The notes: generated by a model not told the origin, from the sequence alone. A stretch of 31,508 nt of DNA from an uncultured Candidatus Poseidoniales archaeon (GCA_964016325.1 CAXHFZ010000001.1:1-31508); one strand, 5' to 3'; numbered from the stretch's first letter, positions 175 to 29,174 are shown. Made by a program: numbers and translations.

Positions 175-1263
175 TCAGAGGTCGCCTCTAGACCACCTTC
201 CGGTCTGCTTGTTGAACCGTAAACCGGCCTTCTTCATCCACTTGTTGAACTTCGTGGCTCCAGCCCCTGTGGCGATGATGAAATCTTCTCGGTCTTCCTG
301 AGCCTGTATGTATCCCTTGGCGGCAAGTGTCTGGTCTATCCAATCGTCAATATCCATCAATCCGCCAGAGAGCTTGCTGGATTCTACAGCGGCTTCTAAT
401 TCCTCTGCTGACGCCCCGGTAGTCTCCAAGTCCTTCATCATGAGCTCGACAACGGATGAGCTGTCTACCTTCTTGGGGGGTTTTACAACTGGCAACCTTG
501 GTTTAATCTTCGGATCTATTGTAATTCTAGATCCGTTTGTAAGGCGTTCTTCCACGTGTTCTGCCATGGGTGACCTAAATTCTTTATCGCATTCCCAGCA
601 GATGAAAACGTAATCTGACATATCTTCCATTAGGTTACCGCCCCTTGGATCCATTTCTTCACCGCAGTGAGGGCAGGCGTGCAAACATAGAACCGGAGCA
701 ATCTTTCTTCTGAAGTCAACAATATCTTGTGGGGTTCCAACCAACTCCAGCATTTCGTGGTCCCTAGCCGCTTCCAGACCTCGGGTCTCTAACTGATCTC
801 TAATCTTGGATCGCTGTTCATCCTTAGACTCATCATCAAATGTATTCTCAAGTTTTACAATTAGCTCGATCGTTTTTCCCAGTCTGTTCATTACAAGTTT
901 CTTATTTCTGAAGGCCTCTACTCTGGCCATTCTAAGCTGTTCTTTCTTCTCCAAGAGCTCTGCAAGCAAATCTTTTTGCTCTCTTTTGAACCTCTGCTCT
1001 TCGATTTTGTCGACTTTTGGCTTTCCATCCTTGGAAAGAACATCCGCTAGGAACCTCTGCTTGCTGGATGTCCTTGGACCTGATTTAACAGCTTCAATCA
1101 CAGATGTGGCAATATCCTTCTTCAGACCATAATTATTGATTAGGGTCTCCTGGTCCATCTTCTTCAGATCACCGACCTTGATTCCTCCGTCTGATAGAAT
1201 CTGTGCGGTATTCTCGTCTATTCCCCTTCTCAATAGGGCGAGATAGGTGTCTTTCTTTGCCAT
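175..1263 (-). CDS. Hypothetical protein: N-terminal HhH/SAM-like helical domain, coiled coil, C4 Zn ribbon, C-terminal winged-helix-like domain
   Basis: Long ORF. ATG at 1263 is preceded by GGAGTGG. Contains CPHC...CWEC and a charged helical middle region. The family is not recognised; domain labels are by eye. Confidence 0.7.
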   Translation of the reverse strand: MAKKDTYLALLRRGIDENTAQILSDGGIKVGDLKKMDQETLINNYGLKKDIATSVIEAVKSGPRTSSKQRFLADVLSKDGKPKVDKIEEQRFKREQKDLLAELLEKKEQLRMARVEAFRNKKLVMNRLGKTIELIVKLENTFDDESKDEQRSKIRDQLETRGLEAARDHEMLELVGTPQDIVDFRRKIAPVLCLHACPHCGEEMDPRGGNLMEDMSDYVFICWECDKEFRSPMAEHVEERLTNGSRITIDPKIKPRLPVVKPPKKVDSSSVVELMMKDLETTGASAEELEAAVESSKLSGGLMDIDDWIDQTLAAKGYIQAQEDREDFIIATGAGATKFNKWMKKAGLRFNKQTGRWSRGDL

Positions 1264-1281
1264 ATTTTCCACTCCATCCGT

Positions 1282-1305
1282 GGCAGGCCGGGGGTTGGCC
1301 GTGCC
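1282..1305 (-). promoter_or_regulatory. GC-rich stem-loop in the putative 5' leader
   Basis: Minus strand GGCA(C)GGCC-AACCCCC-GGCCTGCC: 8 bp stem with one bulged C. TTGATA at 1331-1326 lies about 20 nt upstream. Confidence 0.45.
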
Positions 1306-1347
1306 CCGCCGAGAGGGGGGGAACCTATCAAGGCGATGATTATACTG

Positions 1348-2256
1348 TCAATTTTTAGACTCGAAGTCGGAAATATGGTTACATATTGATAACCATTCCT
1401 CGATAAACATATCATCTGGCCTCATTTCTAACCAGTCCGTCCTCATTCCTTCGGGAGTTGTCTCATTGAATTGTAATACAAGTCGCGCCCATCTTGACTT
1501 ATGCCAGCCTCTTATTCTACTGATTCTCTTTGGTGGCTTAGAGAGGAGTGTTCTCATCTTCCTTCTCCTATTGGCAAAACAATGGTGTGTGATAATTCTG
1601 AACATTTTTCTATCTTTTATATGAGGCTCTTCCTCTCTTGGCTGTAGCATTACTAATCTGGAGTTCACCCTGGGTGGAGGAGAGAAAGCACTTGGCGGTA
1701 CCTTCGATCCGAGGTGAACGACAAAATCTAACCACAGCGATAAACCAAGTGGACCTATGCTTCTGGGACCTCTGTTCATGGCCATCCTTTCCGAAAACTC
1801 ATCCTGAACTAATAGAACTACAGCTTTCAGCTGATTTTTACGAACATGAGACTGTATCCTTTCTAGGATAGGGCTGGAAATACCATATGGGATATTGGCT
1901 ATTATGTGCGTTACGTCTTCTGGCCAGTCAACTGTAAGTGCATCAGCATGTACTATGGAAAGATGGTCGTCCTCGGTTTCAAATACTCTATTCAGGTGCA
2001 ATACTGCTTGTTCATCTATTTCGAATGCGGTTACTTTAGCACCCTTTCTTAGCAGAAAGAGAGTCAGTGACCCGGGCCCGGGTCCAATCTCTAGGATATG
2101 TGAATCCTTAGTGACTTCCTGGCCAATTTGATCTGACATACTTACTGCTTCTGAAACGATATTCTCGTCTAAAATGAAATGTTGCCCCAGATTCCTATCA
2201 GGGTTAATCCTGTCTCTGAGTAAATCCACCAACATTCTTGAATCTAAGTCTTCCAA
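1348..2256 (-). CDS. rsmA: 16S rRNA (adenine-N6,N6)-dimethyltransferase RsmA/KsgA
   Basis: LGQHFILD, ILEIGPGPGSLT, IIANIPYGIS and FSPPPRVNS motifs. TTG start with GGAGGT 6 nt upstream. Canonical position after DUF655. Confidence 0.95.
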   Translation of the reverse strand: MEDLDSRMLVDLLRDRINPDRNLGQHFILDENIVSEAVSMSDQIGQEVTKDSHILEIGPGPGSLTLFLLRKGAKVTAFEIDEQAVLHLNRVFETEDDHLSIVHADALTVDWPEDVTHIIANIPYGISSPILERIQSHVRKNQLKAVVLLVQDEFSERMAMNRGPRSIGPLGLSLWLDFVVHLGSKVPPSAFSPPPRVNSRLVMLQPREEEPHIKDRKMFRIITHHCFANRRRKMRTLLSKPPKRISRIRGWHKSRWARLVLQFNETTPEGMRTDWLEMRPDDMFIEEWLSICNHISDFESKN

Positions 2257-2270
2257 AACAATACCTCCGA

Positions 2271-2876
2271 CTAGATCTCGGAGCGTACGAGAAGTTCTAG
2301 GAGGCTTGGAGACTCTGATGGATCGTTCATCTCCCCCTGGTACCTTTCAGCTAGTAGTCTGACTGATTCGATTCCACAGGAGCTGTCAATCTGCTCAAAC
2401 GAAGACCATCCTGATCCTCCTCTCTCTTTGACCATCTGAATAGCCTTCGAATTCCCAATACCAGGAAGTAGCTGGAATGCATGATACTTCAGGGAGAGGT
2501 TGTTAGCCCTATTGTAGAACCCTAGGTGCCTATCTGGATCTGAGTTTATCGATTCGATAATTGCCTCATTTAGATTATTCGAGGACTCTTCAGTTAAATC
2601 CCTGAATCTTATTTCCGATAGAGGCCCAATAGAGCCCGATGACGTATCCACATCTTTACCCGGAGAATCGACTGTCTCATCGTCTATTCTTGCTCTAACG
2701 AGATACATCGAAGGTTTTGACAATCCCTGAAGTTCGGAGCCTGATGGAATTCTATCAAGAACATCCAAGATAAATACTGATGATTCCCGATGAAGTGGTC
2801 CTTCATCAGAGATTCCAGAATCAGATGGGTCTTGCGCTGGCATACTTCTCAAATGTTGGAAGGGGTCTCCCCTCAT
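2271..2876 (-). CDS. DUF655 family putative RNA-binding protein (HhH)
   Basis: FYNRANNLSLKYHAFQLLPGIGNSKA...ERGGSGWSSFEQI resembles the DUF655 HhH motif. Sits between rpoF and rsmA as in many archaea. Confidence 0.8.
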   Translation of the reverse strand: MRGDPFQHLRSMPAQDPSDSGISDEGPLHRESSVFILDVLDRIPSGSELQGLSKPSMYLVRARIDDETVDSPGKDVDTSSGSIGPLSEIRFRDLTEESSNNLNEAIIESINSDPDRHLGFYNRANNLSLKYHAFQLLPGIGNSKAIQMVKERGGSGWSSFEQIDSSCGIESVRLLAERYQGEMNDPSESPSLLELLVRSEI

Positions 2877-2913
2877 CAATGGTTTAGTCGGAACAAATCG
2901 ATGGAAACCGGTA

Positions 2914-3267
2914 TCAAAGTACGTTCTGCCTTACGATTTCTATTATTTCCTCAATCTCAGAAGTGTCCATAGCAACTCTCTTGCTAGCTATTATTACTCT
3001 GACTCCTGAGACATCCATTGGAGCTAATTCAGCTATTTTAGCGCAAATATCTGGATTCTCTGCTAACTTCTCATTCTCCATTAGTCTTGAGAAGAGTGAG
3101 ACGAAGACTTCTGGATCTGTCTTGATTCCTCCTCTATTGGTGCTGGCTGCCCATGTTGCGTGTTGTAGAGCCATCATCTGCTCGTAAGATAGTTCTCCTC
3201 TTCGCTCGTTTGCGCTCTCAAGAAGATCTCTGACTGTTGCAAAGTCCACAAATTCACGGTCTGACAT
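2914..3267 (-). CDS. rpoF: DNA-directed RNA polymerase subunit F (Rpo4)
   Basis: 117 aa with ELSYEQMMALQHA and KIAELAPMDVSGVRVI (HRDC-like). Directly downstream of rpl21e. Confidence 0.85.
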   Translation of the reverse strand: MSDREFVDFATVRDLLESANERRGELSYEQMMALQHATWAASTNRGGIKTDPEVFVSLFSRLMENEKLAENPDICAKIAELAPMDVSGVRVIIASKRVAMDTSEIEEIIEIVRQNVL

Positions 3268-3277
3268 CTAATCACCT

Positions 3278-3568
3278 CTATGCTGGCCTCAAATGCTCCG
3301 GCCTAGCTACAACCGTCTTTACCATATTGCCTTGAAGGACACTGACTACGAAAGCGTTTCCCTGTGGCTTGACAATAGTTCCAGTCAGCCCGTGGAATCT
3401 CCTGTGAGGCATACCTCTTTGCTCTGCCCCATCCAGGACAATAGAAACCTTGTCGCCTTCCTTGTAAGGATGTAAAGCCCGGTTGATGAAGAGTCTTCTT
3501 TTCTGAGTCTTCTTCTTCTTGAGGATTGATCTAGTTCCTTGTCTAGTACCATGGGTCCGCGTCGCCAT
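3278..3568 (-). CDS. rpl21e: 50S ribosomal protein L21e
   Basis: 96 aa basic protein with GDKVSIVLD and GMPHRRFHGLTGTI...PEHLRP. GAAGGTGA ribosome-binding site upstream. Confidence 0.97.
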   Translation of the reverse strand: MATRTHGTRQGTRSILKKKKTQKRRLFINRALHPYKEGDKVSIVLDGAEQRGMPHRRFHGLTGTIVKPQGNAFVVSVLQGNMVKTVVARPEHLRPA

Positions 3569-3576
3569 TGTATCAC

Positions 3577-3598
3577 CTTCAACCAGAGGTCGTGGAAA
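3577..3598 (-). promoter_or_regulatory. Short hairpin just upstream of the rpl21e ribosome-binding site
   Basis: AGGTCG/CGACCT 6 bp inverted repeat. TTAATA TATA-like element at 3623-3618. Confidence 0.3.
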
Positions 3599-3647
3599 CG
3601 CTCGACCTGAGGCCCGCTATTAAGTCCGTCGGATTGTTATTTATCAC

Positions 3648-5072
3648 TCAATCAGCGTGTATCTCATTGACATCCAGCCAGAGGACCTCGCATTCTCTAT
3701 CAATTACAGACTTTACAGAGGGGACGGTCCTACCCTCATCAGAGTGGACCAGTTCTTTCACGTAGGTCCCGGCCTCACATCTCAAAGAGAACTGTATTTC
3801 CTGATTATCTACGATCACGTCCGATATAGAGACAATCTTTCTCTTGCGGGTTTTTGCAGCTCTCCGGTGTGAAACTCTTTTTGGAGTCTCTTGCTCCAAA
3901 ACTACTCCTGAGAGAGAGTTGATTGACTCAATTATTTGATCTTCGGGGAGAGCATCTTCAATCTTGAACCTGATAGTGTATGATTTCTCAGAACGTGTCT
4001 CTTTGACCCTACTGACATCCTTCTTATGAGACCACTTTAGAGAGTTTACTTTCACTTTCTCAGGATTGTTTGAGTTTATTTTAGACTCTAGATCTACAAG
4101 GTCTGTTTCTCTTATTTTGGGATTCTTTATCTCCAGAACGAACGGCCTTCCAGAACCCAAGCACCTCACATCGATATCCTCTCTGCCCATTCCGTGAAAG
4201 GACGTATCGAATGCTCCCATCTGTGCTTTTACTGGATCTCCAATAATATCTTGCACTGATTCTCTATACTGCAGACCGGTTCCCTCGCAACTTTCGCAAC
4301 CGTCTCCTCTACCTCTGCAGGACCGGCAGGGCCAGCGAGTTTGTGGTATCCCTCTGGCGAGTTTTTCATACCTACCATAGATGAATACTGGTCTAATATC
4401 CGTATCGACTCTGAGAGTCAAAGCATCCACTGTTACCATTACATCGGGATACTCCTTGACGAATGCGATTTCAGGAATTTTTCTCAGCATTTCTGCTTGT
4501 ATTGCCATGGCGAACGAGGCTTTCAGTGGCTTGGATCCACGCGCACCATGTTTTGTTCTAATCGCATCTTCACTCTGGAGGAGGTCTTTTGGAATATGAA
4601 TCCCTAGTTGCATTGACCTGAATTGGGTATCTTCAAGGGTCTCTATGATCCTCTCAACGATATTACCTACGTCATCAAATAGATTTTCACATAGCGGGCA
4701 CAAATCTGGTATATCAAAATCTGAAAGACTTGAATCCCTTGAGAATGCTTCTTTCCTCAGTGAAAATCCTCCTTCAAAGCCCGAGGATTGGGTTCTTCTT
4801 CCTCCTATTCTATGCAGACAATGGTCACATGCTCCAATCTTGATTACATGAGCGATTCCTAATGGGGCCGGACAGGGAGGGGCGTCCCAGTCAATGGAGT
4901 CTCCTTGCAGATAGAAATCATCACCATCGAACCACTCGTCATCGGTTTCCTCTTCCTTACTCGGCTCACTATTTTCAAGTGATTCAGCCACGCCATAGTC
5001 AGCACTCGCATAAAGAGTCCACTCGTCCTCATCTACACCGTTAGAGGTTTCCTTCGGGTCGTCTACACTCAT
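3648..5072 (-). CDS. pus10: tRNA pseudouridine(54/55) synthase Pus10
   Basis: Catalytic FHGMGREDIDVRCLG-GRPFVLEIKNP, QETPKRVSHRRA, CEAGTYVKELVHSDEGRTVPS, N-terminal CDHC/CPLC and THUMP-like region. Start set at ATG 5072 because GGTGA lies 5 nt upstream. Confidence 0.94.
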   Translation of the reverse strand: MSVDDPKETSNGVDEDEWTLYASADYGVAESLENSEPSKEEETDDEWFDGDDFYLQGDSIDWDAPPCPAPLGIAHVIKIGACDHCLHRIGGRRTQSSGFEGGFSLRKEAFSRDSSLSDFDIPDLCPLCENLFDDVGNIVERIIETLEDTQFRSMQLGIHIPKDLLQSEDAIRTKHGARGSKPLKASFAMAIQAEMLRKIPEIAFVKEYPDVMVTVDALTLRVDTDIRPVFIYGRYEKLARGIPQTRWPCRSCRGRGDGCESCEGTGLQYRESVQDIIGDPVKAQMGAFDTSFHGMGREDIDVRCLGSGRPFVLEIKNPKIRETDLVDLESKINSNNPEKVKVNSLKWSHKKDVSRVKETRSEKSYTIRFKIEDALPEDQIIESINSLSGVVLEQETPKRVSHRRAAKTRKRKIVSISDVIVDNQEIQFSLRCEAGTYVKELVHSDEGRTVPSVKSVIDRECEVLWLDVNEIHAD

Positions 5073-5081
5073 TAAAATCAC

Positions 5082-5114
5082 CAACGAGGAAGGGGGGTAC
5101 CCACATCCTCGTTG
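5082..5114 (-). promoter_or_regulatory. Stem-loop abutting the pus10 ribosome-binding site
   Basis: Perfect 9 bp inverted repeat CAACGAGGA/TCCTCGTTG (5082-5090 and 5106-5114) enclosing GGGTACCC. Confidence 0.5.
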
Positions 5115-5158
5115 CCATTACGGGGTGCCGATGTGTTTTGACATCTTCGTATCGAGAA

Positions 5159-5482
5159 TCATACTTTCTGACCAGATGATTCGGATATCTTTCTAAGATG
5201 TTCGAAGGAATGGATGCCACTTGAGCACCCGGTTGGCCACTCGAATCTTATTGCATAGTTCCCCACCTGTTCTACTTTCGGTTTCACTAGCATCATTCTG
5301 GAGATTTCCTCCTCGAACTCTATCTTAATCTGTTCATTTACCTGTCTAGGCTTACACTTCGCGCATTGGCAATTCTTTCTTACTTCCAAATAATCAAGAT
5401 TGTATGTGTTGTCGTCTGAAAACGCTAGTATACAATACGTGTCCTTTCTTTCAAGTGAGATTAATACCGGAGATTTGTCCAT
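5159..5482 (-). CDS. DUF971 / GBBH-like N-terminal domain protein
   Basis: LRKNCQCAKC...VGNYAIRFEWPTGCSSGIHSFEHLR matches the LR-x2-C-x-CA-x-C ... GNYA ... GIY pattern of the family. Confidence 0.78.
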   Translation of the reverse strand: MDKSPVLISLERKDTYCILAFSDDNTYNLDYLEVRKNCQCAKCKPRQVNEQIKIEFEEEISRMMLVKPKVEQVGNYAIRFEWPTGCSSGIHSFEHLRKISESSGQKV

Positions 5483-5484
5483 AG

Positions 5485-5934
5485 TTAGCCTTCCGAATGA
5501 CTCATCTTGTCCTGAGGGTTTAGGATCACATGCATGAGTAGGCCCACAGGCATTAGCATTACTCCGAAGAAGATGATTAGTCGAGTTTTGCTAATCCCTA
5601 TTTGGTTCTGTAAGGCCTTCCTCCACATCCACCTGGTAGCCATGATATCTCCTGCAACGAAGTGGGACCATGCTAGAACCGTGCCCGATTCGGTTCCAAG
5701 TATCTCTACCATAGTGTCGAGGAAATCAGTAGGATTGCCCGTAACTAGGTCAATCAGACCAGATGGTTCAAGGATGGCGGTGATTAGCCAAACTGCAAGT
5801 GGTCCGATGAATAGGGAGTTCCCTCGCATCCAATTTTTCGTTCTTTCAGATGTTGGCTCAGAAAGCATGAGGAACCAGTAAGGTCCAATCCAGATAGTAG
5901 GAACGATGAACAGGACAGTGTAGATTAACTCCAT
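5485..5934 (-). CDS. ABA4-like (DUF4281) membrane protein
   Basis: About four hydrophobic helices. LAWSHFVAGDIMATRWMW resembles W-x-H-x-L-x-x-D-L-F-x-x-R-W, and FFGVMLMPVGLL resembles the C-terminal motif of the family. Confidence 0.7.
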   Translation of the reverse strand: MELIYTVLFIVPTIWIGPYWFLMLSEPTSERTKNWMRGNSLFIGPLAVWLITAILEPSGLIDLVTGNPTDFLDTMVEILGTESGTVLAWSHFVAGDIMATRWMWRKALQNQIGISKTRLIIFFGVMLMPVGLLMHVILNPQDKMSHSEG

Positions 5935-5960
5935 GTCTATTACTCCTTCGTCTGTTAATT

Positions 5961-7520
5961 TTATGTGGCATTATTGGATATAATACGTGGCTTCTTGATA
6001 TCTTCAAACCAAGTGTCGGTACCGTTCCAGTCAGGTTCGACTCCCATGTCCGCACAGATCAACTTGGCAGAGATTCTCCCACTCTCCAATATCGTTGGTA
6101 GGCCACTTCCCGGATGAGTCCCCCCTCCTACTAGATACAGGTGGTCTAGTTCCTCAAATTTATTCTGTGGCCTTCTCCAGAGCATCTGATCCAGCCCATG
6201 TGCTAAGTTGAATACTGCGCCTTTGTATATGTCACGAGCGGCCCAGTCATCAGGGGTCACTATAGTCTGGGATACTATGTGATCTTTGATGCCTTCGAAG
6301 CCTAATTTTTCCATCTGCTTAAGAATCACATCCATGTAATCGTCTTTGATGTCTTCCCAATTAATTCCCTCATGAGAACTACTAGCGGGAACTAGGACGT
6401 AGATAGTGGAATGTCCCTCTGGGGCCATTGTAGAGTCTGTTACGCAGGCATTCTGGACATATATGGATGGGTCATCCCATGTGACTCTGTTCTCGGTGAC
6501 TTCTTTGAGATTTTTTTGATAGTCTTTAGCCGCATATATCTGATGGTGTGGGGTGTCGTATAATTTATCAATTCCCAGATAAAGCATGTATGTTGAGCAG
6601 GAGTATGACTTCTGGTCGAGTTTCTTGTTGGACCATTTCTTCCTGAGCTTGTCAGGGATTAGTCCCTTCATTCCTGTAGCGAAATCTGCATTCATCACGA
6701 ATTTGTCAGCGGTATACGTTCCACTGTCTGTCCTGGCCCCTATTACCTTCTTGCCTTCGAAAACAAACTCATTTACTGTCTCGTTGAGTATTATTTTAAC
6801 TCCGAGTTCTCTGGCTATATTGGCCATTTTCTGGGTTATTGTTCCTAGTCCTCCTTCGACATGGAATACTCCATGCTCGTACTCTAGATATGCCAAGATT
6901 GTGAAAAGGCTGGGTGCTTGGAAGGGGCTCATTCCAAGGTACTTAGTCTGGAACGACATGGCTAATTGCATTCTCTCATCAGTGAACATCTTGGAGAGAT
7001 CTGAAGATACGCTTCTCCATGGCCTCAATACTTTAGCGACCCTCAGAGCCCTTCTGCTAATGAGATCAGTCGGGCCTCTCCAAGGAGAATTTAGGCAGTT
7101 CTTTGAAAGAGTGAGCTTGGTTCTGTTATCCTCTATGTATCTCCTGAAGCCATTTGCGTTATCCTCCCCACAAAGTTCTCCAATTTGAGAAACCATATCT
7201 TCTAAATCCGTACTGGCGTTTATACTTCCTCCTGCTCCGAATACTAGCCTATAATTTGGATTCAATTCGATTAGCCCTAGCTCTTTCCTGGCATCTAGAC
7301 CGAGAGCCTCAAAGATTTCCTCCGCAATTTCTGGATAATGGAAAAAAGTAGGTCCGTTGTCGTACTTGAAACCATCTTTTTCGAATACCCGTGTTCTACC
7401 TCCGACATCATCTGATTTCTCAAGTATTGTGACATTGATTCCTGCCTTGGCTAGAAGCATTGAGCATGCTAATCCACCCGGTCCCGCGCCAACTACTACT
7501 ACATCACTATGCCCTGCCAT
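5961..7520 (-). CDS. crtI: Phytoene desaturase family (CrtI/CrtN-like) FAD oxidoreductase
   Basis: VVVVGAGPGGL...EK...GGR...DNGPTF, YLGMSPFQAPSLFTIL and YLVGGGTHPGSGLPTILESGRISA. The exact substrate (C40 or C30, or a modified carotenoid) cannot be determined from sequence by eye. Confidence 0.88.
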   Translation of the reverse strand: MAGHSDVVVVGAGPGGLACSMLLAKAGINVTILEKSDDVGGRTRVFEKDGFKYDNGPTFFHYPEIAEEIFEALGLDARKELGLIELNPNYRLVFGAGGSINASTDLEDMVSQIGELCGEDNANGFRRYIEDNRTKLTLSKNCLNSPWRGPTDLISRRALRVAKVLRPWRSVSSDLSKMFTDERMQLAMSFQTKYLGMSPFQAPSLFTILAYLEYEHGVFHVEGGLGTITQKMANIARELGVKIILNETVNEFVFEGKKVIGARTDSGTYTADKFVMNADFATGMKGLIPDKLRKKWSNKKLDQKSYSCSTYMLYLGIDKLYDTPHHQIYAAKDYQKNLKEVTENRVTWDDPSIYVQNACVTDSTMAPEGHSTIYVLVPASSSHEGINWEDIKDDYMDVILKQMEKLGFEGIKDHIVSQTIVTPDDWAARDIYKGAVFNLAHGLDQMLWRRPQNKFEELDHLYLVGGGTHPGSGLPTILESGRISAKLICADMGVEPDWNGTDTWFEDIKKPRIISNNAT

Positions 7521-7524
7521 TATA

Positions 7525-8757
7525 TCACTCCAAATCTAAGCCGGATTTGAACTCATCCAATGAAGCTCTCATCTCGGGAATCAGTTTTACATCTGGATAG
7601 GTCCTAATAACTAGTCCATCCATGTACATAAGTGAGCGTATTATGGGGAATCCCTCTTCCCCATAGTCAGCTCCAGCATTCTCAACTGCAGATCTCACGG
7701 TTTTCATCATCACTTCTGTCAAACTCTGCTGGCCAACACTCAAATTTTCGAAGTCATTGTAGATCAGATGCATATCTTTTTTGAATTGGTTTACTTCATC
7801 TGATCTTGGTCTTCTCTCTGCAAGAGAAATGAGGGATTCAAAGGCCAAGTCTTTGTCATCTGCAGACAAATGATAGAAGAAGTTGAAAAGGGATCTGCTG
7901 ACTTTTCTTGGGGCCTCGCATATCGCTCCGTTGTCAATAAAGACGAAATTTCCATCGGGATCCATTATACAGTTACCCGGATGAAGATCTCCATGGAAAG
8001 TTCCTATCCCGAACATGAAAGCACCATGAATTCTGAATAGCTCAAGAAGATCCTCCCATTCTAAGCTGGAGGACTCAATGCCTTGTTCCAAGGTTTGTCC
8101 TTTAACGAATTCAGAAACTAGGACATGTCTGTTGGAGAGATCTGGATAGTATACCGGGAATCTAAGTCTAGGCATAGGAAAATCACTTGATAGATCTTCC
8201 TTGATTGTACTGAGTCTGGAAGCTCCGTTTATCTCATTTCGTAGATCTAACTCACGGAGTGTATAGTCTTCAACATGCTCTAATAGAGCAATTGGATTTC
8301 CTACCTTTCTTAGTTTTGGGGAGATAACCAAAGCAATTTTGAGCCATCGGCTCATTCTTTTCACATCTCTCTTAAACTTCTTTTCATGATCATCTTTGAT
8401 TATTTTCACGACGACTTCTTCTCCTGATTTCAGTCTTGCTCTGTGTACCTGGCCGACTGATGCGGCGGCCAGAGGCTCTACATCAAACCACGAGATTTCA
8501 TCGTGATACGCATCTGGAGCCTTGTCTTTCAATATCCTAAACACATCTTCCGTTGGTATAGTGGAAGCATTACTGTACAAGGTCTGAAGTTGCTTGCACT
8601 TCTCTAGGCTGATGATGTCCGGTCTAAGAGCAAATATCTGAGCTAGTTTGACCGCGAGTAGTCCCTGACTCTCTATCCATCCCAGATTGGCAGGAGATTT
8701 TCGAGTAACCTGCCTCATGAAGAGTGTGAACTTGAGTAGACGCACAATAATACGCAA
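7525..8757 (-). CDS. ABC1/AarF/UbiB family atypical kinase
   Basis: VKLAQIFALRPD, PLAAASVGQVHRARL-GEEVVVK, ELDLRNE, FHGDLHPGN and FIDNG. Start uncertain (TTG 8757, GTG 8745 or ATG 8719). Confidence 0.87.
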   Translation of the reverse strand: MRIIVRLLKFTLFMRQVTRKSPANLGWIESQGLLAVKLAQIFALRPDIISLEKCKQLQTLYSNASTIPTEDVFRILKDKAPDAYHDEISWFDVEPLAAASVGQVHRARLKSGEEVVVKIIKDDHEKKFKRDVKRMSRWLKIALVISPKLRKVGNPIALLEHVEDYTLRELDLRNEINGASRLSTIKEDLSSDFPMPRLRFPVYYPDLSNRHVLVSEFVKGQTLEQGIESSSLEWEDLLELFRIHGAFMFGIGTFHGDLHPGNCIMDPDGNFVFIDNGAICEAPRKVSRSLFNFFYHLSADDKDLAFESLISLAERRPRSDEVNQFKKDMHLIYNDFENLSVGQQSLTEVMMKTVRSAVENAGADYGEEGFPIIRSLMYMDGLVIRTYPDVKLIPEMRASLDEFKSGLDLE

Positions 8758-8795
8758 GGAACTATGAATATAATGTGATGTATGTATTCTGATGA

Positions 8796-10154
8796 CTAAC
8801 TGTTGAAATTAATATCATATTTCACAGAGTTTTCAGCATTTTCAATCGTTGTCCTTGTAATCTCCACGCTTGAGTCATCAGAGTATCTTGAGAGAAGAGC
8901 TCCCTCGATTATTCCATCGTCCAAGGAGTGTATTGGGAGTCCGCCTGGCTTACTTGACGGGTGCTCTACTAAGATGTGGAATAGGGGATCTATATCGTAG
9001 CTGAGTTGTCCAAGTCCTGCATACTCCCACCAATCCATCATCTCATTTAGAAACTCAATATTTCCCTCAATATTCCTTAAGGAGAATGATAGTTCCTGAC
9101 CAACTCTATTTCCCACCTGTCTGAGAAGATGCTGGACGTCTATTCCGAATGCGGAAAGAGCCTCAATACCACCAGATTCTAGATTTCTTCTAGCATCACT
9201 TATTTCGAGTCCTGAAGCAAGGAACGCATCTGGATTGAATGGCGTATCTCCTTCTGGGATATCATCAGATATCTGAAGAACATCTCTGATTTTCTCGAGG
9301 AATGAGCCACTATCAATAGTTAGCTTCAGAGGGTCTACAATTCTCTCCTCGGTGAACCTTTTTGAGGCTACCTCGTAAGGTATTGCCTCCTCCCATATTG
9401 TATCCAGAAGATTTTTCTGCGATTCTGCGAAAGACTCAGATTCAACTGTCAGAGCTGCGTCATTCTTTCCTCTTCCAACGGGGTTCTCCTCCATACTGAG
9501 GTACTGAACAACCTCAAAGTCGTCTACTAATGCGCTCTGTGCGTCCAAGTCATCAGAGTGACGGATCTCTACTGATTCATGGAGATCGTTGTAGAATCTG
9601 ATAGTCCTTCTTTCGAGCTGTGAAAGTACCCTGACTCTGACTCCTCGGGAGGCCGCATCGTTTACTGCCTGCAATGCACTACTTCTGCACAGATGAAGAA
9701 TACCGAACTTTCCGAGAGTCAAGACAATCTCATCCTGAGCCTCTTCAGCCATCTTTTCGATCCTTTTCATAATGTGGACCCTTTCCTTCAGGACAGCAAA
9801 CTTGGGCTCATCGTCCGAGATTCCTTTCTCAACTGGAGACGAGTACTTTGATCCACTTTGAATATCTTCAAGCCCCTGCTCTATCCTCTTCAGTTGTTCC
9901 TTTCTGATTTCTATCAAGTGAGTGACAGCACTGTCCAGCGGAGGGCTAGAGAATCTCATTGGCCTATCAGCGGTTGTTGTTACTAGTCCTATCCTCTGCA
10001 GTCTCTCGAGCGAGTTGTAAGCATCTAGCCGCGTGGTATCAAGTTCTTTAGCTAGCTCACTAGCCTTGATGTTAGATTTTCTGGACAGTACCGTTAATGC
10101 GTTGATTTCCCTCTCAGAAAGACCGGCATCTGTGAGAATCTGGCTCCATGTCAG
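8796..10154 (-). CDS. TrmB-family transcriptional regulator with C-terminal V4R-like domain; probable CTG start
   Basis: The frame of ORF 8796..9959 stays open 65 codons further upstream and encodes the HTH (TWSQILTDAGLSEREINALTVLSRKSNIKASELAKELDTTRLDAYNSLERLQRIGLVTTTADRP). There is an in-frame TGA just upstream and no ATG/GTG/TTG in that stretch. CTG at 10154 overlaps the upstream stop as CTGA. Confidence 0.82.
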   Translation of the reverse strand: MTWSQILTDAGLSEREINALTVLSRKSNIKASELAKELDTTRLDAYNSLERLQRIGLVTTTADRPMRFSSPPLDSAVTHLIEIRKEQLKRIEQGLEDIQSGSKYSSPVEKGISDDEPKFAVLKERVHIMKRIEKMAEEAQDEIVLTLGKFGILHLCRSSALQAVNDAASRGVRVRVLSQLERRTIRFYNDLHESVEIRHSDDLDAQSALVDDFEVVQYLSMEENPVGRGKNDAALTVESESFAESQKNLLDTIWEEAIPYEVASKRFTEERIVDPLKLTIDSGSFLEKIRDVLQISDDIPEGDTPFNPDAFLASGLEISDARRNLESGGIEALSAFGIDVQHLLRQVGNRVGQELSFSLRNIEGNIEFLNEMMDWWEYAGLGQLSYDIDPLFHILVEHPSSKPGGLPIHSLDDGIIEGALLSRYSDDSSVEITRTTIENAENSVKYDINFNS

Positions 10155-10627
10155 GAGGATCGCCCCCCATCAGTTATTTTGCTGAGTGAGTCTAGAATCC
10201 TTGCAACATGCCTCCTGGGTCTGAAGAGCCAGTCATAGACATGATGGATTGTATTGTCAGGGCCTATAACAAAGGAAGATTTGGCGGGGAAAGCCCCTAG
10301 ATGAACTGGGACTTTGAACATGTCTGCAACCTTTCTATCGGAATCTGATAGAAGGATGAAGGGGAGTTCAAGTTCCTGCTTGAATTCTCTGTGTTGCTGG
10401 ACAGAGTCTTGACTTATTCCGATTACTTCTACCGATGGCTCCAGTGAGCGAAACAGGTCATATTGTTGCTTGAAGTTAAGACATCCTCTTTTGCACGTTG
10501 GAGAGCCAGCCTTAGCATAGAAGAATACCACTTTCCAGGATCCATCCAAGTCACTGAATTTGAATTCCTCACCGTCGCTAGTCTGCAACGAGAAATCTGG
10601 TGCTTTCTGACCTACCATTGATGACAT
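10151..10627 (-). CDS. bcp: Peroxiredoxin BCP/PrxQ-like (AhpC/TSA) protein with non-canonical active-site residues
   Basis: GQKAPDFSL, VVFFYAKAGSPTCKRGC, VIGISQDS...HREF...LPFILLSD. Start set at ATG 10627, after GGAGAG. Confidence 0.82.
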   Translation of the reverse strand: MSSMVGQKAPDFSLQTSDGEEFKFSDLDGSWKVVFFYAKAGSPTCKRGCLNFKQQYDLFRSLEPSVEVIGISQDSVQQHREFKQELELPFILLSDSDRKVADMFKVPVHLGAFPAKSSFVIGPDNTIHHVYDWLFRPRRHVARILDSLSKITDGGRSS

Positions 10628-10658
10628 TGACAATCTCTCCGGTGGCACGAACGGTTTC

Positions 10659-11273
10659 TTATATGTCAAGTATGTGGCCCATTCTCTTACCCTTAGTGGA
10701 TAGATAGTGTATGTTCTCTAGTGAAACGCCTGAGATGTGTTCAATTCTTCTTTCGACGTGAATACCATTGTTTCTGAGACCCTGAATTTTGAGTGGATTG
10801 TTCGTCATTAGCCTTACTCTCTCAACCCCAGCATCCTGGAGCATTTTGGCGGCAATCCCATATTCTCTTGCATCTGCTGGAAGGCCCAGAGCAAGGTTGG
10901 CATCAAGAGTGTCGTACCCTATGTCTTGAAGTGCGTAGGCCTGTATTTTTGAGTGTAGACCTATGCCTCTTCCTTCTTGTCTGAGGTACACTACCGCCCC
11001 GCATCCTTCTTCCTGGATTTTCCTCATCGCGGCTTCCAGTTGCGGACCGCAGTCACACTTCATGGACCCAAATGCGTCCCCTGTAAGACACTCTGAATGT
11101 ATCCTTACCAGAGGAGCCTCACCGTTAGATATGTCTCCTGTGTATAATAACGCGTGCTCTTTCCCGTTGGAGTCTTTGGTAACTCTTACTCTAAAGTTTC
11201 CAAACTCCGTAGGAAGGTAGGCATCTGCTTCAATTTCGATTGGTTCAGCATCTTTCCTGACTTGTATGGTCAT
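10659..11273 (-). CDS. ribA: GTP cyclohydrolase II (monofunctional)
   Basis: LPTEFGNF, VRIHSECLTGDAFGSMKCDCGPQL, YLRQEGRGIGL, LMTNNPLK and YLSTKGKRMGH. The true start is ATG 11273; the 92 extra codons in the ORF track run over the intergenic region and the photolyase start. Confidence 0.95.
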   Translation of the reverse strand: MTIQVRKDAEPIEIEADAYLPTEFGNFRVRVTKDSNGKEHALLYTGDISNGEAPLVRIHSECLTGDAFGSMKCDCGPQLEAAMRKIQEEGCGAVVYLRQEGRGIGLHSKIQAYALQDIGYDTLDANLALGLPADAREYGIAAKMLQDAGVERVRLMTNNPLKIQGLRNNGIHVERRIEHISGVSLENIHYLSTKGKRMGHILDI

Positions 11274-11297
11274 GTTAGTTCTGCGATCACATGAGGT

Positions 11298-11346
11298 TAT
11301 GAATGAGTGTTTGAAATCCAACAGGAAAGAAAACACCGCCTTATAT
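11298..11346. promoter_or_regulatory. Putative back-to-back promoters for ribA (TTCATA, minus strand, 11303-11298) and photolyase (TTATAT, plus strand, 11341-11346)
   Basis: TATA-like hexamers 24 nt upstream of ribA ATG 11273 and 22 nt upstream of photolyase ATG 11369. Positional inference only. Confidence 0.4.
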
Positions 11347-11368
11347 GGTTGAGTGAATGAATATGAAC

Positions 11369-12925
11369 ATGATTGGAGTATCGGGGGGTGTGGTTTGCGT
11401 GTCTTCTCCGAGAGTTCGGAGATTAAATGATGAGTCCATAGACGACTCGGGTGAGTTCGTGCTCTACTGGATGACCTCAGTACGAAGGTATCACTACAAC
11501 TCTGCCATGGACAGGGCAATCGAGTTATGCCAAGAGCTAGGAAAACCACTACTGGTGGTCGAGTGCATTTCTGTCAGACACGAGTGGTCCAGCGAGAGAG
11601 TTCTGACGTTTGTTGCGCAGGGAATGGTAGACAACATTTCCATTTTCTCAGATAATGGAATCACCTACTTGCCATGGATTGAGAATCACCTTGACTCGGG
11701 AGACGGTATGCTCAAGAAACTCTCAACAAAGGCTTGTGCAGTCATAATTGATGATTATCCCACATACCTACCTCGATGGGTCATGGAAAGAGCCAGCAAA
11801 ACGTGTAAGGTAAGCGTCGAAGCTGTGGATTCTAACGGGATAATTCCGATGAGTTACGCTGACAAGGCACACAAAACTGCATACTCTTTCAGAAAGCACG
11901 TGCAGAAGAGTCTGTACGGTGCCCTGTCTACAATTCCCAATGAGAATCCGATGAGTGGAATTAGCTCAGATTTATCTATGGACATGTCTAGATTTGATGA
12001 CATTGTCGAAGAGTTGGATATCGAGTTTCCTCCTCTGGAATGGATCTGGAGAGTTGCTGAGGGAGGTAGTGTTGGCAAGAAGGCCATGGCGCCTTTAACG
12101 ATGGATCATGAGGTGTACGCTGTAGACTCAATGAAGGGAGGATATTTCGAGGCAGTCTCAAGATTGGGGAGATTCCTCGAAAAGAGGTTGCAAAACTATT
12201 CCGAGGGAAGGAATGACGCAGATAATCCGGCAGTTAGTGGGCTATCTCCATGGCTACATTTTGGACATATCTCCAGCTTTAGGATCGTCAAAGAGGTCCT
12301 TGAAAAGGAAAACTGGACCTATGACTCGGTTTGTGTAGAAGACACTGGAAGAGGTTCTAGGTCAGGATGGTGGGGACTATCAGAATCTGCGGAGTCTTTT
12401 CTCGATCAAATTATCACATGGAGAGAGCTAGGATTCAACTTCGCACACTACAGGAGAGACCACAACACGCTAGATTCCATACCAAATTGGGCTAAGGAAA
12501 CTCTCAACGAGCATAGAGATGACGAGCGTGTAAAATATACTTTTGAAGAGATTGAAGGCGCGAAGACCAATGACGAGGTATGGAATTCAGCTCAGAGACA
12601 ATTACTCAGAACTGGACACATGCACAATTACTTGAGAATGCTCTGGGGGAAGAGAATCCTAGAATGGTCACCGGACCCTGAGACAGCAGCAGATTGGATG
12701 ATAAGGATTAATGATAGATGGGCCCTAGACGGTAGAGACCCAAACTCGTACACTGGAATCTTCTGGGTTCTGGGAAGGCATGACAGGGCATGGGGCCCCG
12801 AGAGACCTATCTTTGGAAAGGTTAGGTATATGTCTTCTGCGAATACAAAAAGGAAGCTGAAGCTGGATGGTTATCTCTCCAGATGGGCTGAGGATGCCCC
12901 TCTTCCTAAGAGTCTTCGAAGGTGA
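11369..12925 (+). CDS. phr: Class II CPD DNA photolyase
   Basis: [68 protein letters not shown] and [19 protein letters not shown]. Start uncertain (ATG 11369, or GTG 11399 after GGGGGGTG). Confidence 0.95.
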   Translation: [518 protein letters not shown]

Positions 12926-12929
12926 ATGA

Positions 12930-14327
12930 ATGTACAAGTACACGCATGAAACTGTAGTGGACTCAGATATCAAATCAACCTTCGATTGGTTCGAGCATGA
13001 AGGTTCTTTCAGAAGGCTAATGCCACCTTGGGAGGTAGCCGAGGAAGTCCGTGCAGATGATTCACTAGAGATTGGATCTCAGAGAGTTTTTCGATTTCCA
13101 GCTCCAGGTGCACCATTCCTGAAAATGACTTGGATCGCAGAGCATACTGCCTACGATCCACCTAATCACTTCGCTGATAAGATGGTAAAGGGGCCTTTTT
13201 GGTCGTGGAATCACAATCATGATCTGACTGAGAGTGGAGGTAAAACCACTGTTAGGGACGAAGTTACCTACCAAGTTCCGTTTGGACCTCTTGGGAATCT
13301 AGCAGATAGTATTCTGGGGGGGTGGCTCGTGAAGAGCAGGATATCGAGGATGTTCAAGGCCAGAGAGTTAAGACTTCAGAGAGACATGAAAGAACATGCA
13401 AAATTTTCACAACTTAAGAGGAAGAAAATACTAGTCGCTGGTTCTTCTGGATTAATAGGAACGCAACTAGTTGCATTCCTGGACACGGGTGGGCATGATG
13501 TCTGGAGATTGGTTAGGAGGCCCGCTAAAGAAGGTCTGAAAGAGCTAACTTGGGACCCGACACAGGGATTGATCAATCCTTCCGAGATAGAGGGTTTTGA
13601 TATTGTTATCCACCTTGGTGGTGAAAATATTGGAGAAAAGAGGTGGAGCAAGAAGAGGAAGGAGGCCATAATAGAATCTCGGAGGGACTCCACAATTCTA
13701 CTCTCTGATACTATCAGTAGTCTCAGCAAGAAACCAGAAGCATTCCTTGTAGCCAGTGCTATAGGATTCTATGGAAATAGAGGCGATGAGATCCTCACAG
13801 AAGATAGCCCACAGGGAGAAGGTTTCCTCACGGATACGGTGATAGAATGGGAGTCTTACGCCGAATCAGCTAGAAAGGCTGGAATCCGGGTGATCAACAC
13901 TAGGAATGGGATTGTTCTATCGGCGGCTGGAGGCGCTTTGGAAAGAATGCTCCTCCCATGGAAGTTAGGAGGCGGAGGCCCCCTTGCAGGAGGCAAGCAA
14001 TGGATGTCGTGGATTTCCCTTGATGACGAAATCTATGCCATTCATCATCTGATTATGAACGGAGAGTGCGAGGGTGTTTACAATCTTACTGCCCCTGAGC
14101 CCGTAAGGCAGAAGGTGTTCTCAAAAACTCTGGGAAGAGTTCTTCGCAGGCCCGCTTTCGCTCCGATTCCTGGTTTCTCCATGAAGATTCTTTTCGGTGA
14201 GCTTGCCGGCCCTCTCCTTATAGAAGGGCAAAGAGTACTACCTAGCAGACTTCAGCAGTCTAATTATGAATTCCTCCACAAAGACCTTGAGTCAGCGCTT
14301 AGAGACTCTCTTGGTGTTTGGAGGTAG
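12930..14327 (+). CDS. SRPBCC-domain / TIGR01777-family NAD-dependent epimerase fusion
   Basis: N-terminal START-like region (FDWFEHEGSFRRLMPPW, F-D-MVKGPFWSW-H-H, RDEVTY) followed by ILVAGSSGLIG, HLGGENI...RWS, GGGPLAGGKQWMSWISLDD and GQRVLPSRL. Confidence 0.9.
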   Translation: MYKYTHETVVDSDIKSTFDWFEHEGSFRRLMPPWEVAEEVRADDSLEIGSQRVFRFPAPGAPFLKMTWIAEHTAYDPPNHFADKMVKGPFWSWNHNHDLTESGGKTTVRDEVTYQVPFGPLGNLADSILGGWLVKSRISRMFKARELRLQRDMKEHAKFSQLKRKKILVAGSSGLIGTQLVAFLDTGGHDVWRLVRRPAKEGLKELTWDPTQGLINPSEIEGFDIVIHLGGENIGEKRWSKKRKEAIIESRRDSTILLSDTISSLSKKPEAFLVASAIGFYGNRGDEILTEDSPQGEGFLTDTVIEWESYAESARKAGIRVINTRNGIVLSAAGGALERMLLPWKLGGGGPLAGGKQWMSWISLDDEIYAIHHLIMNGECEGVYNLTAPEPVRQKVFSKTLGRVLRRPAFAPIPGFSMKILFGELAGPLLIEGQRVLPSRLQQSNYEFLHKDLESALRDSLGVWR

Positions 14328-14331
14328 TTTG

Positions 14332-14751
14332 ATGGAGGGCGGCGCCCGAGTAAGGAATATTTCTAACGCAGGAAGAAGAAATAGATTCTACGGTTCGATC
14401 ATATTGTTTTTGCTTGCGATTATCGTGAATATTGTGTATCTAATCGTAGGAAATCCGCCCACGCTGAATCCTGATTATAATCCGACTCTTCTCATCGTGA
14501 CAGCAATCACATTATCTGGTCTAAACATAGCAGGATTTCTAGTACTTATGGAGTCAGCCACTCAAGTGTGTGTTTACCATGGGTTCCTGGGAACACATGA
14601 GTCTTCATCCGGCGCCAAGAAGCACGAAGATGAGTCGGTTGCTCGAGCATGTAGGAGTAAAAGCTGGAGCATAATTTCTCAGTCGACAGTCTTCGGTATT
14701 ATTTTGACAACTATCTCACTTTGGCTACTCTCTAAATTTATGGTCAATTAG
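14332..14751 (+). CDS. Hypothetical membrane protein (about three TM helices, two Cys)
   Basis: ATG 14332 lies 4 nt after the previous stop, with GAGGT upstream. RNIS-x-GRRNR precedes hydrophobic segments. Overlaps the MMPL 3' end convergently by 8 nt. Confidence 0.68.
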   Translation: MEGGARVRNISNAGRRNRFYGSIILFLLAIIVNIVYLIVGNPPTLNPDYNPTLLIVTAITLSGLNIAGFLVLMESATQVCVYHGFLGTHESSSGAKKHEDESVARACRSKSWSIISQSTVFGIILTTISLWLLSKFMVN

Positions 14752-28209: not shown

Positions 28210-29174
28210 CCTTCGAAGATAATTGTTGATCCAACATCATCTATCCCTAATGGAATAAGTCTATTTTTTGCGTGTAATTGACGAAGTCTGTCTCTGAGAT
28301 CTTTCTCCCCATGAACTAGGAAGAATCCTCCTCCTCCCGCACCAAGTAGCTTGGCTCCAGATGCCCCTAACGACATTATCTCATCGTGAAGGGAGTCTAT
28401 CTCATTACCAGATACCCCTGCAGAAATTCCTCTCTTCTCGTGCCAAGACTCGCCGATCAAAATTCCTAGTTTGGAAAGTTCACCTTCATTGAGAAATTGT
28501 TCTGCGGTATCAGCCTGATTCCTGATTTTTCTAAGTCTCGTTAACTTGTTGTTAGGATCTCTCGGGACCTCCCTTAGTACCTCAGAAGCACTCCTAGATA
28601 AACCAGTAAATACCAGTGTGAACTCATCTCTTATTTGTGACTCACAGGATACCATTATCGGTTCCACTCGTACTCCTTCAGAGTCAAAGGAGATTACATT
28701 GATTCCTCCGAAAGCTGCCGCATACTGATCCTGCCTGCCGATAGGCTGTCCAAGAATATCTATCTCTATCAAGCACGCTTCTTCCGCTAATTGATCGGGA
28801 GATGCGTCACGACCTGCAAATTTGTGCAGGGCATTCAGTAGTCCGACTGTTACCGTTGATGAAGAGCCCAGTCCTGTGCCTCTTGATGGTATATCTGCGA
28901 TAGTGGTAATCTCTACTCCGGAAGTAACTCCGGTTAGCCTCATAGCCTCCCTAACGAGCTCGTGTTTGAGATCCTCAAAGTCATCCACTAACTCCAGAGA
29001 GGAGTATGATACTCTGACTCTCTCATCGAATCTCTTGTTCACCAGAACGTGGATGTATTTGTCAATAGCCAGAGATACGACCTTTCCCCCGATCTCTTCC
29101 GATTTGGAGAACGAGTCGATATCCGTACCTCCTCCACAGAAGGAGGCCCTTAGGGGCGTTCGGCTGATTATCAT
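28206..29174 (-). CDS. GHMP sugar kinase, HddA (heptose-7-phosphate kinase)-like
   Basis: MIISRTPLRASFCGGGTDI, IPSRGTGLGSSS, GRQDQYAAAFGG and GAKLLGAGGGGF. Start set at ATG 29174. Confidence 0.87.
   Translation of the reverse strand: MIISRTPLRASFCGGGTDIDSFSKSEEIGGKVVSLAIDKYIHVLVNKRFDERVRVSYSSLELVDDFEDLKHELVREAMRLTGVTSGVEITTIADIPSRGTGLGSSSTVTVGLLNALHKFAGRDASPDQLAEEACLIEIDILGQPIGRQDQYAAAFGGINVISFDSEGVRVEPIMVSCESQIRDEFTLVFTGLSRSASEVLREVPRDPNNKLTRLRKIRNQADTAEQFLNEGELSKLGILIGESWHEKRGISAGVSGNEIDSLHDEIMSLGASGAKLLGAGGGGFFLVHGEKDLRDRLRQLHAKNRLIPLGIDDVGSTIIFEG

Follow-up and report, generated by a model that had tools for sequence, protein, structure and literature searches.

What joins a gene for an ABC1/UbiB-family atypical kinase, one for a CrtI-family phytoene desaturase, one for an ABA4-like (DUF4281) integral membrane protein and a small DUF971 gene in an uncultured Candidatus Poseidoniales archaeon? 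The four stand side by side in the 31,508-nt stretch of DNA analysed here (GCA_964016325.1, CAXHFZ010000001.1:1-31508; hereafter, the window), which belongs to a 1.38-Mb metagenome-assembled genome (MAG) of 265 contigs and 83% completeness. A first-pass annotation of the window had read them as one operon of families whose plant homologues act in plastids, and had proposed a unit whose task is not to make carotenoids or other polyprenyl lipids de novo but to modify, mobilise or scavenge them. The layout was exactly as described there, with all four open reading frames (ORFs) on the minus strand and gaps of 4, 26 and 2 nt (Table 1), and a profile scan of the larger ORFs of the window returned no crtB, crtE, crtY or blh, for which the whole genome gave matches on other contigs or none. 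The function that we propose is a different one: with a probability of about 0.6, the window carries the core of a Poseidoniales carotenoid module, in which the ABC1 and ABA4-like proteins form an accessory pair that handles or isomerises an acyclic carotenoid.

Linkage and co-inheritance of ABC1, CrtI and ABA4

Approximately 18 kb around the ABA4-like gene were fetched from 40 Poseidoniales genomes and the neighbouring genes were labelled by tblastn; four Pfam-annotated metagenome contexts were also used for linkage. Three families are distinguished below, the window's own (f1, 99 genomes), a small sister family (f2) and the other large family (f3). The order ABC1-CrtI-ABA4-DUF971-Pus10 was present in all five of the other same-genus loci fetched (L055-L059), and the arrangement is therefore not due to chance. 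As anticipated by the first-pass annotation, the locus gives the ABA4 family a prokaryotic context. CrtI and the ABA4-like gene were adjacent in 22 of 22 f1 and f2 loci, either directly or with only an SDR gene and/or a gene for a thioredoxin (Trx)-like protein of ~200 aa between them. ABC1 adjoined CrtI, or a crtB-CrtI pair, in 15 of these 22 loci. The cluster occurred as ABC1-CrtI-ABA4 in the window's genus and several others, as ABC1-crtB-CrtI-SDR-Trx-ABA4, and as crtB-CrtI-Trx-ABA4 with genes for a Rieske protein, an amine oxidase, an SDR, a PNPOx protein and ABC1 a few kilobases away, and the adjacency of ABC1 and CrtI was kept in several f3 genera (L087, L088 and L094).

Many genera have the Trx-like gene inserted between crtI and ABA4, and some f3 copies of the ABA4-like gene adjoin one as well. 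The window's own genome has only a paralogue with 36-38% identity, on a contig of 1.6 kb, whose relatives adjoin DNA polymerase B and not pigment genes; we therefore rejected it as a member of the unit in this genome. On a further contig of the same genome we observed an overlapping SDR-Rieske pair, homologues of which are found within the cluster in other genera.

All family searches covered the same 201 Poseidoniales genomes. The ABA4-like family was detected in 138 of them, a strong CrtI match in 151, ABC1 in 141, rhodopsin in 122, Blh in 21 (all f3) and a CrtYcd-type cyclase in none. ABC1 and ABA4 occurred together in 134 genomes and were both missing from 56, and the 11 genomes with only one of the two fit the incompleteness of MAGs that are 79-98% complete. 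This co-occurrence extended to genera where the cluster and ABC1 are not linked (G061, G067 and G087). CrtI was present in 136 of the 138 ABA4-positive genomes, and only two of the 141 ABC1-positive genomes were without a strong CrtI; among the listed CrtI-less genomes (86-98% complete), neither PF03109 (E value of at most 1e-20) nor the window protein as query found an ABC1. Nine genomes kept CrtI and had neither ABC1 nor ABA4. The syntenic slot read TrmB-CrtI-DUF971-Pus10 in G007, which belongs to the window's genus, and in G085, and the fetched stretch of G049 carried TrmB-CrtI with both ABC1 and ABA4 absent. Since CrtI has been kept while the gene on each side of it has gone, two deletions are needed, and their joint loss argues for a shared function that is dispensable for CrtI.

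The fourth gene has a different partner. DUF971 was co-directional with the ABA4-like gene only in the window's genus; in other genera it was divergent from crtB yet still beside Pus10 (L016, L060, L061 and L072-L074), and it preceded Pus10 in G027 and G077 too, whose carotenoid cluster lies elsewhere in the genome. The DUF971-Pus10 pair was also intact in G002, a 98% complete genome in which CrtI, ABA4, ABC1 and rhodopsin were not detected. The protein contains C38-x-C40-x2-C43, which we take to be the Cys-x-Cys-x2-Cys zinc motif of GBBH-like_N as defined after human BBOX1. Taken together, these observations divide the four-gene functional unit first proposed: three of the genes, ABC1, CrtI and ABA4, show linkage and co-inheritance, but DUF971 follows Pus10 and is a syntenic neighbour outside the carotenoid unit. 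The functional unit is thus one of three genes, ABC1-CrtI-ABA4, and the plastid analogy that had been drawn from DUF971 to HCF101 adds nothing, because DUF971 is not part of it.

The locus was represented in RNA libraries. Metatranscriptome contigs from four runs in two studies matched it at 90-100% identity, and bridged the CrtI/ABC1 (7219-7590 and 7237-7587), ABA4/CrtI (5706-6302) and TrmB/AhpC junctions; among the RNA pieces listed, none bridged the ABA4/DUF971 or DUF971/Pus10 junction by at least 31 nt. These results are compatible with co-transcription of ABC1, CrtI and ABA4.

The desaturase and its synthase partner

Whether the unit makes carotenoids or only handles them depends on its enzyme and on what the rest of the genome supplies. 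The window desaturase matched TIGR02734 well above the cut-off (466 bits against 238) over residues 7-496 of 519, with NAD_binding_8, the N-terminal Rossmann motif for flavin adenine dinucleotide (FAD)/NAD, at residues 9-71. It aligned over its full length with Pantoea CrtI (PDB 4dgk, E 7e-74) and also matched 4rep (3e-62), and it was the sole strong CrtI match in its genome. The possibility that it groups with non-carotenoid oxidoreductases, which would have undermined the carotenoid assignment, can thus be set aside: the protein is a true member of the CrtI family. Its scores on the equivalog models were all below the cut-off (CrtID, 330 against 640 bits; CrtD, 238 against 580 and 224 against 500), and the HpnE model matched only the N-terminal FAD motif, with 45 bits.

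A search of the remaining contigs for crtB, crtY, blh and rhodopsin, as the first-pass annotation had suggested, found SQS/PSY genes and a rhodopsin; crtY and blh were not found. Neither Blh (PF15461) nor a CrtYcd-type cyclase (PF18916) had a match in this genome, and weak matches to the lycopene cyclase family PF05834 were discarded as geranylgeranyl reductases. The synthases are encoded by two tandem SQS/PSY genes that directly follow succinyl-CoA ligase on contig C89, with products of 331 and 416 aa; the scores of the two genes on SQS_PSY were 180 and 241 bits. The longer has an N-terminal extension of ~100 aa and is the orthologue of the crtB found in the cluster of other genera; the shorter is HpnC/HpnD-like, with low scores, and the pairing is reminiscent of HpnC-HpnD. 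The pair was present, on a separate contig, in five of five same-genus genomes, and is therefore not a binning accident.

These genes bear directly on the original proposal that the unit modifies, mobilises or scavenges external carotenoids or polyprenyl lipids with no synthesis of its own. That proposal agrees with the lack of crtB in the window, with the recurrence of MMPL/RND-type lipid transporters near the cluster (in the window and in L020, L063 and L076) and with the lipid movement attributed to UbiB-family proteins, but it leaves unexplained the two SQS/PSY genes kept in the window's genome and in all five relatives of its genus, as well as the crtB that stands beside crtI inside the cluster in other Poseidoniales genera. 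Moreover, CrtI-type desaturases act on phytoene-like precursors, not on environmental pigments. We consider scavenging highly improbable, and the carotenoid unit belongs to a de novo pathway.

The nature of the product is a separate matter. It could be something other than a C40 carotenoid, namely C30 diapocarotenoids or a lipid derived from squalene, with ABC1 and the ABA4-like protein serving membrane-lipid or quinone metabolism. The partner synthase does score highest on the HpnD and HpnC models and is one of a tandem pair in the window's genus, no equivalog-level CrtI model was above its cut-off, and the classical role of UbiB-family proteins is in quinone synthesis. Against this, the HpnD and HpnC scores were themselves both below their cut-offs, the HpnE match stopped at the FAD motif whereas the CrtI family model matched end to end, and ABC1 was almost confined to genomes with CrtI, in the proportions given above, which would not be expected of a housekeeping quinone factor. 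A non-C40 product therefore seems decidedly improbable to us, and a de novo C40 pathway remains the reading that we carry forward.

The proposed accessory proteins and pathway

The ABC1 protein is encoded by the only strong ABC1 gene of its genome. Its closest solved chains were the mycobacterial ABC1 proteins 5yjz and 7cy2, and COQ8A was also among them; aligned to 5yjz, it retains the A-rich loop (AAASVGQVH), the lysine of VVVK, the HGDLHPGN motif and the Asp of ID-N-G. It reached 154 bits on the UbiB equivalog TIGR01982, far below the cut-off of 487. A hydropathy scan predicted no transmembrane (TM) segment; E. coli UbiB has a C-terminal membrane anchor. A predicted complex of ABC1 with the ABA4-like protein scored 0.00, which speaks neither for nor against binding.

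The ABA4-like gene is present in a single copy in its genome, and the close homologues of its product are labelled Candidatus Poseidoniales or Thalassarchaeaceae. The hydropathy scan gave hydrophobic segments at residues 6-25, 43-64 and 112-140. Its AlphaFold2 model (mean predicted local distance difference test, pLDDT, 94.6) superposed on Arabidopsis ABA4 (Q8LFP9) with a TM-score of 0.78 and a root-mean-square deviation (rmsd) of 2.3 Å, with 139 residues aligned, and gave a TM-score of 0.80 with rice MHZ4; across the two superpositions the rmsd was 2.1-2.3 Å and the identity 22-24%. Five residues (W20, P27, H91, D96 and P129) were invariant across 46 diverse family members, and a Trp-x-His-x4-Asp motif, conserved family-wide, is located in the long helix 82-109, a placement that, in the model, would fit an intramembrane catalytic or ligand-binding site. 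Compared with the PDB, the model found nothing below E 3.5 with Foldseek and a best Z of 8.2, at the level of the helical-bundle background, with VIA-align. Fold searches recognised none of the known enzyme folds and gave no support for an EBP/EXPERA-type isomerase, and we dropped that identity. None of ten ABA4 proteins of fusion length (315-502 aa) in a representative library had a second Pfam domain, so that fusions pointed to no function.

Within Thermoplasmatota, only Poseidoniales had the ABA4-like family; it was detected in 0 of 237 genomes from other families, including the Marine Group III sister family of the same class, which suggests that it was acquired at the root of Poseidoniales, also known as Marine Group II (MGII). 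In plants, ABA4 has been known since 2007 as a genetic requirement for the synthesis of neoxanthin and of abscisic acid precursors (PMC12317632). A plant-type role in the formation of neoxanthin or cis-xanthophylls does not apply to the window's genome, which has no recognised lycopene cyclase and in which the precursor pathway is missing. Because this archaeon has no cyclase and no violaxanthin, the function of the ABA4 family cannot be specific to neoxanthin, and because the xanthophyll precursor pathway is missing, the archaeal protein must act on another substrate. A full-text literature search on DUF4281 gave papers on plants and algae only, and we found no link in them between ABA4-like genes and archaeal carotenoid clusters.

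The pathway that we propose would begin with the SQS/PSY synthase of contig C89 condensing prenyl diphosphates. Archaea already make geranylgeranyl diphosphate (GGPP) for their lipids, and GGPP would be the most likely substrate, giving phytoene, which CrtI would desaturate to an acyclic, lycopene-type carotenoid. ABC1 and the ABA4-like protein would act as the accessory pair of this pathway. According to the COQ8/UbiB model, prenyl lipids such as quinone precursors are extracted at the expense of ATP, and by analogy the soluble, TM-less ABC1 may use ATP to extract a very hydrophobic polyprene or present it at the membrane. It would do so there together with the ABA4-like protein, on the substrate or the product of CrtI. 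The ABA4-like protein may bind the CrtI product within the bilayer and either isomerise it or pass it on. The module is set in a light-stress island comprising ribA, the peroxiredoxin gene and the TrmB-type regulator gene, and its lineages are those that carry rhodopsin.

Rhodopsin, neighbouring genes and known systems

A rhodopsin encoded elsewhere in the genome, which the first-pass annotation had named as a possible recipient of the unit's product, is indeed present on contig C28, as an ORF of 298 aa with the domain starting at residue 69. This ORF is preceded by a 418-aa Pfam-blank ORF that overlaps its listed start by 4 nt and followed by a Polyketide_cyc2/SRPBCC protein gene, with an undecaprenyl-diphosphate-synthase-like gene nearby. 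Across the survey, 120 of the 122 rhodopsin genomes had CrtI and 115 had ABA4. Counted the other way, 142 genomes combine CrtI with ABC1, ABA4 or both, and 119 of these had rhodopsin, as did one of nine with CrtI only and none of 47 without CrtI, ABC1 and ABA4. The association of the module with rhodopsin is suggestive.

MGII have been described as rhodopsin-bearing and blh-lacking (PMC7734400). Neither blh nor crtY was detected in any of the 99 genomes of the window's family, and blh was found in 19 of the 122 rhodopsin genomes. About one-tenth of the Poseidoniales genomes (21/201, all f3) carry, besides, another CrtI that is bacterial-like and scores 635-650 bits, together with crtB-crtY-blh (L093, in genome G146, and L106-L125), crtY occurring only together with blh in these 21. 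This set is a complete canonical retinal pathway, and it limits how generally MGII can be said to lack blh. The genomes that carry it still keep ABC1 (19/21) and ABA4 (20/21). An ABA4-like paralogue directly followed blh in only two loci (L093 and L121) of the ~13 with enough flanking sequence. We had also considered whether the ABA4-like protein could stand in for the absent lycopene cyclase or for the cleavage enzyme, an idea weakened by its retention alongside crtY and blh and by the rarity of the blh-ABA4 adjacency.

One explanation of these patterns is that the ABC1/ABA4 pair, perhaps together with the Trx-like, SDR and Rieske proteins, constitutes an unrecognised chromophore route in blh-less MGII, producing retinal or an acyclic retinal-like aldehyde from the CrtI product. 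It would account for rhodopsin-bearing MGII without blh, including a family that has neither blh nor cyclase, for the near-constant presence of CrtI and ABA4 in rhodopsin genomes, for the difference between 119/142 and 1/9, and for the ABA4-like paralogue behind blh in a crtB-crtY-blh operon of two f3 genomes. It is at odds, however, with the genomes that have CrtI and ABA4 and no detected rhodopsin, among them G015 (96% complete) and G004 (93%), with the infrequency of the blh-ABA4 adjacency, and with the window itself, which has no oxygenase or cyclase candidate. The retention of the pair in canonical crtY-blh genomes means that it is not an alternative to crtY-blh, and rhodopsin and the module may both merely mark lineages of sunlit waters. 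In addition, the authors of a study on Asgard archaea concluded that similar archaea take up environmental retinal (PMC12137139). We regard such a route as unlikely. The most novel claim, that ABC1 and the ABA4-like protein are an accessory module turning an acyclic carotenoid into the rhodopsin chromophore, or otherwise loading rhodopsin, in MGII that lack blh and cyclase, strikes us as quite unlikely.

The accessory-pair reading, to which we return, also has observations that weigh against it. Most f3 copies of the ABA4-like gene lie away from carotenoid genes, one being part of a thiolase-MMPL-ABA4-DUF2071 run and a second surrounded by housekeeping genes, and four non-Poseidoniales ABA4 contexts, all on short contigs, had no carotenoid neighbour. 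The role of isomerase or handler is one that we infer for a family whose members have no demonstrated biochemical activity: plant ABA4, NSY and NXD1 gave no neoxanthin in violaxanthin-producing E. coli (PMC12317632). The best NCBIfam score of the SQS/PSY synthase was with HpnD (227 bits, cut-off 278), followed by cyanobacterial CrtB (188), and such sequence scores would be compatible with C40, C30 or squalene-type chemistry. The genomes surveyed are related MAGs, 79-98% complete, so that counts of co-occurrence overstate independence; the module-rhodopsin association is likewise confounded by shared ancestry and ecology, as both traits may mark sunlit lineages, and 23 genomes have CrtI and ABA4 with rhodopsin undetected. 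Finally, the RNA evidence consists of assembled contigs from libraries that may contain DNA, and does not prove a single transcript.

Upstream of ABC1, the neighbourhood is itself conserved. The order GCH2-AhpC-TrmB-ABC1-CrtI recurred among relatives, with the GCH2/AhpC order in L056-L062, L087, L088, L133 and L134, and the conserved block runs from GTP cyclohydrolase II, AhpC and the TrmB-like regulator through the carotenoid cluster to DUF971, Pus10 and L21e. A Pfam scan identified further archaeal-type genes in the window (Pus10, L21e, RpoF/Rpb4, DUF655 and KsgA). The listed ORF of the regulator had only weak, sub-threshold Pfam matches (DUF7436 and PLDc_2) and a weak MsvR match in NCBIfam; the name TrmB is taken from its homologues in relatives, which match PF01978. 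The winged-helix N-terminus is encoded at 9960-10154 in the same open frame, so the apparent gap of 192 nt between AhpC and the listed ORF is coding, in a frame without ATG, GTG or TTG (9960-10170, minus strand). Same-genus relatives start at an ATG, or at a TTG one codon earlier, and have a protein of ~450 aa; the window has CTG-ACA at this point, and may have a rare start codon, an N-terminal truncation or an assembly error.

Several further genes were recorded around the cluster. A plus-strand pair is divergent from the ribA-AhpC-TrmB run, its first gene overlapping the listed ribA start. The gene for an MMPL/sterol-sensing-domain protein lies 6 kb from the cluster, and MMPL/RND-type transporters were recurrent near ABA4-like genes: an MMPL gene precedes ABC1-crtB-crtI in L020 and L063, and in G003 one overlaps the start of the ABA4-like gene, with DUF2071 next. 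A GHMP-kinase gene 20 kb from the cluster is possibly that of mevalonate kinase, and hence of isoprenoid precursor supply.

Table 1. Positions of the cluster genes, of other genes recorded in the window and of related loci on other contigs
Feature	Location	Position	Strand	Length and matches
ABC1/UbiB-family atypical kinase/ATPase-like	window	7525-8757	minus	410 aa; Pfam PF03109, 148 bits
CrtI-family phytoene desaturase	window	5961-7520	minus	519 aa; Amino_oxidase/NAD_binding_8; TIGR02734, 466 bits
ABA4-like (DUF4281) integral membrane protein	window	5485-5934	minus	149 aa; PF14108, 61 bits (cut-off 27)
DUF971/GBBH-like_N small protein	window	5159-5482	minus	107 aa; PF06155, 56 bits
TrmB-like regulator, directly upstream of ABC1	window	8796-10154 (listed ORF 8796-9959)	minus	387 aa (listed ORF)
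AhpC/TSA peroxiredoxin	window	10151-10669	minus	Pfam
GTP cyclohydrolase II (GCH2, ribA)	window	10659-11549	minus	Pfam
Gene pair divergent from ribA	window	11357-14327	plus	522-aa ORF, Pfam-blank; 465-aa epimerase/DUF1731 (YfcH-like)
MMPL/sterol-sensing-domain protein	window	14744-17995		1083 aa
GHMP kinase	window	28206-29195		
Tandem SQS/PSY genes	same genome, contig C89 (L005)	1876-4214		331 and 416 aa
Rhodopsin	same genome, contig C28 (L006)	5234-7383 (locus)		298 aa
Trx-like paralogue	same genome, contig C262 (L023)	352-954		
Overlapping SDR-Rieske pair	same genome, contig C16 (L024)	468-1608		
MMPL gene overlapping ABA4-like, then DUF2071	G003 (L076)	4864-10261		934 aa (MMPL)
Second crtI with crtB-crtY-blh	G146, contig C11 (L093)	2429-7495		

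The locus places an ABA4 homologue in the three-gene core of an organism unable to make xanthophylls, so that its role can be tested in a simple system. It also offers, in a TM-less UbiB-family protein co-inherited with the ABA4-like protein, a prokaryotic example for ABC1 proteins acting on carotenoids, an activity that has reportedly been inferred so far only from plant plastoglobule mutants. MGII archaea are among the most abundant microbes of the surface ocean. Most of them have rhodopsin and lack the known retinal genes, and an explanation would most naturally be sought in the module that tracks rhodopsin across the order. If the chromophore reading were true, it would explain the phototrophy of the most abundant surface-ocean archaea without known retinal genes, and would show which biochemical activity the plant ABA4 family had ancestrally.

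Compared with known systems, the window protein resembles Arabidopsis ABA4 (At1g67080) and rice MHZ4 in its Pfam family, its predicted helical membrane fold, the Trp-x-His-x4-Asp motif and the genetic association with carotenoid metabolism. Plant ABA4 differs in having a transit peptide and in acting on epoxy-xanthophylls (violaxanthin to neoxanthin, and cis isomers), whereas the archaeal host has no recognisable lycopene cyclase and hence no substrate for the plant protein. The archaeal gene is, moreover, chromosomally coupled to crtI and ABC1, a coupling of which we know no instance in plants. With UbiB, COQ8 (ADCK3) and the ABC1K proteins of plant plastoglobules, the window ABC1 shares the A-rich loop, the HxDxHPGN catalytic loop, the metal-binding Asp and an association with prenyl lipids; it differs from them in its low UbiB equivalog score (154/487 bits), its length of only 410 aa, its lack of a TM helix and its pattern of inheritance, which follows crtI and ABA4 and not quinone genes.

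The desaturase is like Pantoea ananatis CrtI in the full-length match and in passing the TIGR02734 cut-off, but forms a divergent archaeal branch, with 466 bits on that model compared with 635-650 for the bacterial-like second CrtI. The canonical proteorhodopsin crtE/I/B/Y-blh operon, found as crtI/crtB-crtY-blh in 21 of the 201 Poseidoniales, likewise serves rhodopsin-bearing marine plankton; the window's family lacks crtY and blh (0/99), and its cluster has ABC1 and the ABA4-like gene instead, to which the clusters of other genera add SDR, Trx-like lipoprotein and Rieske genes. A parallel in circumstance is Kariarchaeum pelagium (Heimdallarchaeia), a pelagic rhodopsin-bearing archaeon that has genes for linear carotenoids only; these pelagic Heimdallarchaeia carry crtB-crtI plus two unexplained genes in the operon and apparently depend on external retinal (PMC12137139).

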